Assembly: GCA_964016885.1 (NCBI GenBank)
Contig: OZ024743.1
Coordinates: forward strand, 81,840,001-81,904,000
Direction: 5' to 3'
Length of the DNA stretch: 64,000 nucleotides
From: Eledone cirrhosa
Lineage: Eukaryota
Of this stretch, positions 53,440 through 54,242 are shown in pieces. The notes beneath the pieces were generated by a model, which worked only from the letters and a program-made list of their open reading frames with translations, made no database searches and was not told where the DNA came from. The position numbers and the translations under genes are program-made. The stretch's first letter is position 1, and every line of letters begins with the position of its first letter.

Positions 53440-53754
53440 TTATTTTAATAAATATATATATATATATATATATATATAAATATATATATATATATATATA
53501 TATATATATATATATATATATATATATATATATATATATATATATATATATATATATATATATATATATATATATATATATATATATATATATATATATA
53601 TATATATATACATGCACACATATATATATATGTACGTATGGGTTTACCGAACATTTATTATAATGTTCGGCTTGTTTGTAAACAAACATCCCGAATTATG
53701 CCGTACAGTGCTCAGCAACCATCGTCGCCCTTTTGTTCAACACTGTCACAGGAA

Positions 53755-53795
53755 CGATGTACTAGTTTCAAGCGTATTAGCTATCGTCAGCATCG
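53755..53795 (-). ncRNA. Minimal type I hammerhead (canonical core)
   Basis: Minus: CGATG CTGACGA tAGC taatac GCTt GAAAC TA GTA CATCG. Confidence 0.82.
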
Positions 53796-54202
53796 TATAC
53801 CTTTCTGTCAGATGATTGAATGTTTGAAAGTATATACTTTCCTTTTGCATATTAACGCCTGAGCAGCCTAATTTTCATATCGAGTGAGTTAGTCGGCCGG
53901 GCAACCGAAAACGATAAATGGAAAAGAATGAAGCAACATTTCATTTCTCACTCTCAGTATGGCTCATACCTAAATATAAGTATGTATACGTACATACATA
54001 TATGGGTACAGACGTACAGTAGTATGTATATATATATATATATATATATATATATACATACATGCACACATATATATATGTACGTATGGGTTTACCGAAC
54101 ATTTATTATAATGTTTGGTTTGTTTGTAAACAAACAGCCCGAATTACGCCGTACAGTGCTCGGCAACCATCGTCGCCCTTTTGTTCAACACTGACACAGG
54201 AA

Positions 54203-54242
54203 CGATGTACTAGTTTCAAACTTATTAGCTACCGTCAGCATC
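54203..54242 (-). ncRNA. Minimal type I hammerhead, second copy (A9G change)
   Basis: Minus: GATG CTGACGG tAGC taataa GTTt GAAAC TA GTA CATC. Confidence 0.68.

Follow-up and report, generated by a model that had tools for sequence, protein, structure and literature searches.

A worn tandem hammerhead copy in Eledone cirrhosa and a retrozyme family probably inserted by Neptune-type Penelope-like enzymes

Two hammerhead ribozyme motifs stand in tandem on the minus strand of a 64,000-nt stretch of the Eledone cirrhosa genome (contig OZ024743.1, positions 81,840,001 to 81,904,000; the whole stretch is called the window), which raises the question of whether this locus releases and circularises a 448-nt RNA or is the remnant of a repeat that spreads by other means. 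Both motifs are minimal type I hammerheads, with cores at 54238 and 53790:

54204 to 54242, minus strand: upstream minimal type I hammerhead, CUGACGG core (private G at A9), stem I of 4 bp, stem II with a G.U pair
53754 to 53796, minus strand: downstream minimal type I hammerhead, CUGACGA core intact, stem II of 3 bp through a private A-to-C change

Read along the minus strand, the upstream hammerhead is GAUG-CUGACGG-UAGCUAAUAAGUUU-GAAA-CUAG-UA^CAUC (cut between 54208 and 54207) and the downstream hammerhead is ACGAUG-CUGACGA-UAGCUAAUACGCUU-GAAA-CUAG-UA^CAUCGU (cut between 53760 and 53759). The downstream core retains CUGANGA, GAAA and UH, and its stems I and II are present. A relaxed scan of the window returned four hammerhead-like motifs, and the same scan of each of 10 block-shuffled versions returned none; Rfam at gathering thresholds gave no match anywhere in the window. 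When 11 related hammerheads were aligned, 93% of stem cells were paired and 7 of 11 pairs, in both stems, carried two-sided changes, while sliding the partners lowered the paired cells to 26–60%; the rows of this alignment were hand-picked and related, and the shuffle counts are therefore not probabilities. At position 10.1–11.1 the family has U.U or C.A and no Watson-Crick pair, and the sister family described below has G-C. Cores, minus-strand cut sites, the relaxed scan and the covarying stems thus confirm a sequence-only reading of this DNA, made earlier, in its claim that two minimal hammerheads lie here. Its 448-nt spacing is likewise correct when measured from cut to cut; as a monomer length, however, the figure is specific to this copy, because the internal (TA)n is longer here than in a family with a unit period of ~429 nt.

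Stem III had been described as too short to fold alone and able to pair between copies, and both parts hold, with one A-U pair in cis compared to 6 bp between copies. The hexamer ACUAGU is its own complement, and the minimum-energy fold of a 511-nt transcript already joins the two hexamers by pairing. The central inter-copy pair has a predicted ensemble probability of 0.33, and the full double hammerhead is predicted to cost +1.6 kcal/mol over the minimum-energy fold, relative to +4.6 and +5.4 kcal/mol in two other natural dimers. Single-hammerhead folds were no stabler than shuffles (z +1.0, -0.6, -1.0). The segment between the two cuts was also folded:

53760 to 54207, minus strand: 448-nt segment from cut to cut, with a closed fold predicted

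Here the 5' end is predicted to pair with the downstream stem I strand (z = -7.2, partly owed to a (UA)n hairpin).

A direct repeat of 187 nt, 94% identical between its copies and beginning at 54242, contains both hammerheads, and this repeat belongs to a larger layout:

54056 to 54242, minus strand: upstream unit, 5'-truncated, unit positions 237–423, 94% identity to the downstream unit
53608 to 54030, minus strand: full repeat unit, positions 1–423, 94% identity to the best other genomic copies
53452 to 53607, no strand: (TA)n microsatellite adjoining the 3' end of the element, where the tail to site A or B (see below) that is usual in the family is missing

Searching the 3.0-Gb genome at DNA level yielded 4,665 candidates, of which 40 were scored, and the top other copies were 93–94% identical. 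The exact hammerhead pattern matched 15,523 times genome-wide, covering two subfamilies (0 matches in a reversed control), and a second pattern matched 11,327 times, among the places listed mostly in a sister family that is ~67% alike over part of the unit and forms arrays of up to 31 units. The family consists of non-coding tandem units with one type I hammerhead each, in many genomic copies. An ORF with RT plus GIY-YIG is not present in the unit, whose stop-free frames of 111–136 codons span the microsatellite, and in the arm layouts of 84 sampled loci the units join directly through position 423 to 1 with no ORF. Family-wide hammerhead variants are confined to N7, one stem I wobble, 10.1/11.1 and H17, and such variation at tolerant positions only suggests, as read from the genomic copies, selection on source elements. 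Many variants of the family also occur in three contig runs from a single sample (kind unrecorded). Literature on hammerheads with Penelope elements and octopus or cephalopod retrozymes yielded no account of the family.

We examined the ends of insertions in those 84 loci, which do not overlap and were drawn from the first 100 listed of 2,950 matches to a motif downstream of the ribozyme, all on one contig (C1). They contained 93 insertions clear of locus edges (41 one-armed, 39 simple two-armed inverted and 13 complex, the complex ones being excluded from end counts). Among the 119 3' ends in simple insertions, 95 fell at two sites, with 43 at site A (unit coordinates ~54–60) and 52 at site B (~110–117); 10 were at the internal (TA)n junction, as in this copy, and 14 elsewhere. 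Printed 3' junctions mostly enter (TA)n or another dinucleotide repeat. Both sites are internal at the present locus:

53971 to 53977, minus strand: site A of the family (ending ..CUUAUAUUUA), a fixed 3' end of insertions elsewhere
53914 to 53921, minus strand: site B of the family (ending ..UUUUCCAUUUAU), the other fixed 3' end, which lies ~57 nt past A

In 23 of the 39 simple two-armed insertions each end fell at A or B, and every one of these 23 paired A with B (p ~1e-7 if the ends were independent); the other 16 had at least one irregular end. The same pairing was seen in 8 of 8 countable insertions among 14 subfamily-2 loci and in 10 of 10 among 17 sister loci, which were chosen by opposite-strand hammerheads, independent of their ends; loci were uncountable where an end was missing, off the locus or separated by a gap, or where there was one arm only. 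The total over the three related families is therefore 41 of 41 A+B among two-armed insertions whose ends both lie at these sites. The window itself holds a subfamily-2 insertion (32413–33431, ~80% identical to the unit, two-armed, ends B and A), and the hammerhead of this insertion, at 32826 on the minus strand, has U at C3.

The 5' ends, in contrast to these fixed 3' ends, are scattered, and 67 of the 68 arms that reach the first cleavage site continue through it; the template was therefore not a linear cleaved monomer. Of two candidates for a defined 5' end, one at the cleavage site was rejected (1 of 68 arms stops within 3 nt, 1.2 expected) and one at stem I was not significant (4 of 119 ends within 3 nt, p = 0.18). 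Repeat similarity does begin at 54242, the first base of the upstream stem I strand, where the element boundary had been placed, but the scattered 5' ends and the read-through make this position an ordinary truncation point. The junction at 54242 has 2-nt microhomology with a neighbouring, different hammerhead-bearing repeat on the opposite strand. This high-copy neighbour (54243–54633, plus strand; 3,615 candidates; apparently two fixed ends) is 5'-truncated exactly where the 5' end of our element lies, and its hammerhead at 54454 has CAAA in place of GAAA and the palindrome AUAUAUAU. A deletion could have produced this junction; alternatively, two RNAs could have contributed one arm each to a chimeric insertion. 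Another high-copy repeat (52000–53452, plus strand; 4,108 candidates) ends at the same (TA)n, and its relatives have two fixed ends and inverted arms (L272, L274).

With regard to the enzyme involved, GIY-YIG was not found among the 20 larger window ORFs scanned, and LINE-type RT and endonuclease pieces were present. Broken pieces of this kind, together with a Pif1 2B-domain fragment, lie at 4859–12560, 23627–24346, 36137–38670, 57100–57867 and 60888–61478. Genome-wide there are at least 150 GIY-YIG hits (150 scored out of 10,596 candidates), and most of the loci that were opened contained frames in which RT is followed by a C-terminal GIY-YIG domain, together with a CxxxxCxxC linker. The available portion of one study gives this linker as the mark of Neptune and Nematis elements and connects it with (TA)n targeting (PMC8557442). 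The 3' repeats of these Neptune-type elements end in (TA)n at two sites ~55 nt apart, both two-armed insertions read (L076, L086) were A+B, and the repeats bear minimal hammerheads with a palindromic stem III (AGUACU, ACCGGU). Two Neptune-type families have the same U.U at 10.1/11.1 as the repeat family, and in one family the stem II region is 14 nt, the same length as in the repeat family. Some of the Neptune-type hammerheads combine a U3-A8 core swap (UUGAAAA, UUGAUAA) with the ACCGGU palindrome, and those of L083 and L090 appear degenerate at the core. The following places were singled out:

L071 3416 to 3459, minus strand: Neptune-type hammerhead with the U3-A8 swap
L088 5536 to 5580, plus strand: Neptune-type hammerhead with the U3-A8 swap
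L052 2204 to 2248, plus strand: Neptune-type hammerhead with the U3-A8 swap
L073 1775 to 5062, plus strand: further Neptune-type locus, with an open protein frame of 1096 codons
L071 4809 to 7622, minus strand: further Neptune-type locus

In the flanks of 60 of the 150 scored GIY-YIG loci, DNA homology to the unit was limited to nearby, separate full repeat copies; no partner Penelope family emerged from these 60 loci, and what the unit and the pLTRs sampled there share is ribozyme architecture only. Several parts of the footprint appear in the available portions of earlier work, including the tail, inverted copy and (TA)n bias of Penelope-like elements (PLEs; PMC8557442), the one-sided tail with an inverted arm in qualitative terms (PMC8557442, PMC3846280), self-priming as an explanation of inversions (PMC3846280), two internal RT starts with both strands extended in vitro (PMC11167929) and a view of retrozymes as PLE derivatives (10.64898/2026.07.22.740005). 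The family has the layout of such a derivative, with a partial tandem, an inverted 5'-truncated arm (39 of 93 insertions simple two-armed) and a tail at one end, an insertion footprint that was absent from the sequence-only reading. The strict rule of one site per arm is a new detail of a known kind of element; we did not find it stated in the literature examined, subscription papers and repeat databases lying outside the search. We consider it probable that the locus represents a partial tandem copy, truncated at its 5' end and decayed, of a non-LTR retrozyme with many genomic copies, and that this copy was likely inserted by a Neptune-type RT-endonuclease.

Minor alleles were common to opposite arms at a frequency of 27%, compared to 7% between insertions, and this fourfold excess makes it likely that both arms come from one RNA or one source. 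In a young sister insertion (L238), 15 identical 468-nt units span both arms, which fits rolling-circle copying, although the same pattern could result from a parent array that was uniform or from smoothing in the assembly. Variant patterns recur in two other young sister arrays (L239+240 and L241), for which a single pass on one circle is a poorer fit than a tandem template or unequal exchange at a later time; the former has a 31-unit arm of ~14 kb with A and B ends intact, and the latter shows a 938-nt spacing from alternating variants. We favour, with modest confidence, a template that would have been circular, and regard an uncut tandem transcript as the somewhat weaker candidate.

In the cycle that we propose, tandem source loci would be transcribed, two copies would form a double hammerhead via ACUAGU:ACUAGU, each core would cleave the site of the other copy, and the monomer would likely be ligated into a circle. 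Both strands of a (TA)n target would be cut by a Neptune protein, probably acting as a dimer, which would prime the two DNA ends on one and the same RNA, one end at site A and one at site B, and then copy backwards round the unit, sometimes several times. Two cDNAs joined head to head would yield a two-armed insertion, and a single arm joined to the flank by microhomology would yield a one-armed insertion, as at this locus. The central idea, a circular ribozyme RNA held by a Penelope RT-endonuclease dimer whose subunits may prime the two cut ends at two fixed sites and roll round the circle, is offered tentatively, at rather less than even confidence. If true, it would explain the one-sided tail, head-to-head inversions and tandem arrays of Penelope-like elements and animal retrozymes alike.

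A further possibility, to which we give less credence, is that Neptune-driven insertion proceeds from an uncut linear tandem transcript, with the hammerhead weak or regulatory and circles playing no part in spread. Arms that continue past the cleavage site are just as well explained in this way, long arrays contain recurrent variant patterns, and the U.U or C.A at 10.1/11.1 differs from the canonical pair. In the available text on an anole element, hammerhead cleavage was unnecessary for insertion in vitro and hammerhead mutants inserted normally (PMC11167929). This result also counts against the favoured reading above, as does the failure of 8 of 9 Xenopus retrozyme dimers to cleave (10.64898/2026.07.22.740005). 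However, multi-unit loci are in the minority, with at least two units upstream of the tail in 22 of 92 arms, and yet nearly all arms cross a unit junction, the 15 identical units extend across both L238 arms, and core positions are free of family-wide variants.

The view that this locus is a functional source which releases and circularises a 448-nt RNA, as had been proposed, is improbable, even though both cleavage sites are intact, the double hammerhead lies within 1.6 kcal/mol of the best fold, two tandem hammerheads share one arm here, as they do in only ~10% of insertions (9 of 93, both cores intact in 5), and the transcript of another copy could provide a core in trans. The private G9 was seen in 1 of 99 family segments, namely the upstream core here, at an otherwise invariant core position (70 of the 99 segments have an intact core), and is accompanied by a 4-bp stem I; the downstream stem II has lost a pair, and an octamer-like motif is mutated:

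53871 to 53878, minus strand: octamer-like motif, read here as ATGAAAAT against ATGCAAAT in 51 of 58 matched copies of the family

A possible parallel to this motif is the octamer promoter of newt satellite-2, and a promoter role here is a guess. The two units diverge from the family's commonest letters by 4.4% and 6.6% (median 4.9%, n = 124), the region that precedes the hammerhead in family units is absent upstream of the first ribozyme, and the copy has neither an A or B tail nor an inverted arm of its own family. Changes at A9 impair hammerhead cleavage, and each core cuts the other copy's site in a double hammerhead, so that the G9 core would have to make the 3' end of the monomer; this core, with its 4-bp stem I, would have to cut the downstream site, and release of a 448-nt monomer from this copy is therefore predicted to be poor. 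A9 is listed as a consensus core position in the available part of PMC3088659. The description of the locus as the clearest complete unit also fails, given the 5'-truncated upstream copy and the missing 3' tail, and this copy is likely dead. The CUAGUA/CAUCG junction, suggested as diagnostic of circles, is identical to uncut genomic sequence in thousands of copies and cannot reveal a circle because ligation restores that sequence. The assignment to non-LTR retrozymes is sound for the family but not for this copy, which holds about 1.4 units and one G9 core; an 'active' retrozyme, in the accessible text of one source, contains two or more complete units in a row, their hammerheads complete as well (10.64898/2026.07.22.740005), an arrangement that other loci of the family do show.

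Least probable of all is that the repeat is no more than a pseudo-LTR orphaned from an autonomous Penelope-like family outside the sample, or a DNA-level satellite, for which speak the 60 loci inspected among 150 scored GIY-YIG hits (10,596 candidates) and the long arrays of the sister family, and against which stand the direct unit joins without an ORF across 84 loci and, for a satellite, the fact that unequal crossing-over does not make dispersed copies with fixed 3' ends and inverted arms.

The best reading thus remains a family of a known class, a non-LTR retrozyme carrying hammerheads, with a footprint tied to Neptune-type insertion. The locus is ordinary, one worn copy among thousands, and the family is of greater interest. 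As described in the available portions of Cervera and de la Pena 2020 (PMC7229834) and Li, Clavereau and Pollet 2026 (10.64898/2026.07.22.740005), metazoan non-LTR retrozymes share with it non-coding tandem units of a few hundred nt and low GC, one type I hammerhead per unit with a dimer-dependent stem III, and co-occurrence with Penelope-like elements. The unit here (~429–470 nt) is at or above the top of the 170–400 nt RNAs that those portions report, and its link to PLEs is the insertion footprint (two fixed ends, A+B arms, (TA)n) rather than pLTR homology, the family being known from genomic sequence alone. Neptune/Nematis-type elements and pLTR hammerheads, to the extent covered by the accessible text of PMC8557442, PMC4209133 and PMC3846280, resemble the family in their partial tandems, inverted 5'-truncated arm, one-end tail, (TA)n targets and minimal palindromic hammerhead; unlike them, the family is without an ORF, has a tail of ~57 nt instead of 30–40 and shows no homology to the sampled pLTRs. 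The Anolis Poseidon element PAc, according to the part of PMC11167929 available, also has two internal reverse-transcription starts that define the tail in vitro and cuts and extends both strands at an AT-rich target, but in its bulk assays the start site was no different between strands, whereas here the arms of one insertion always differ in site. Chlamys elements such as MRC1 are likewise non-autonomous PLE derivatives with head-to-tail multicopy insertions; in the available portion of PMC8557442 they share 3' sequence with autonomous partners and most are without hammerheads, while the family here had no partner homology in 60 loci. The A+B footprint bears on two questions, namely by what enzyme animal retrozymes are moved and how the inversions and tails of Penelope elements originate. 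The strict A+B pairing occurs within one genome both in hammerhead repeats that are non-coding and in Neptune-type elements that are coding, and it links the two at the level of mechanism.
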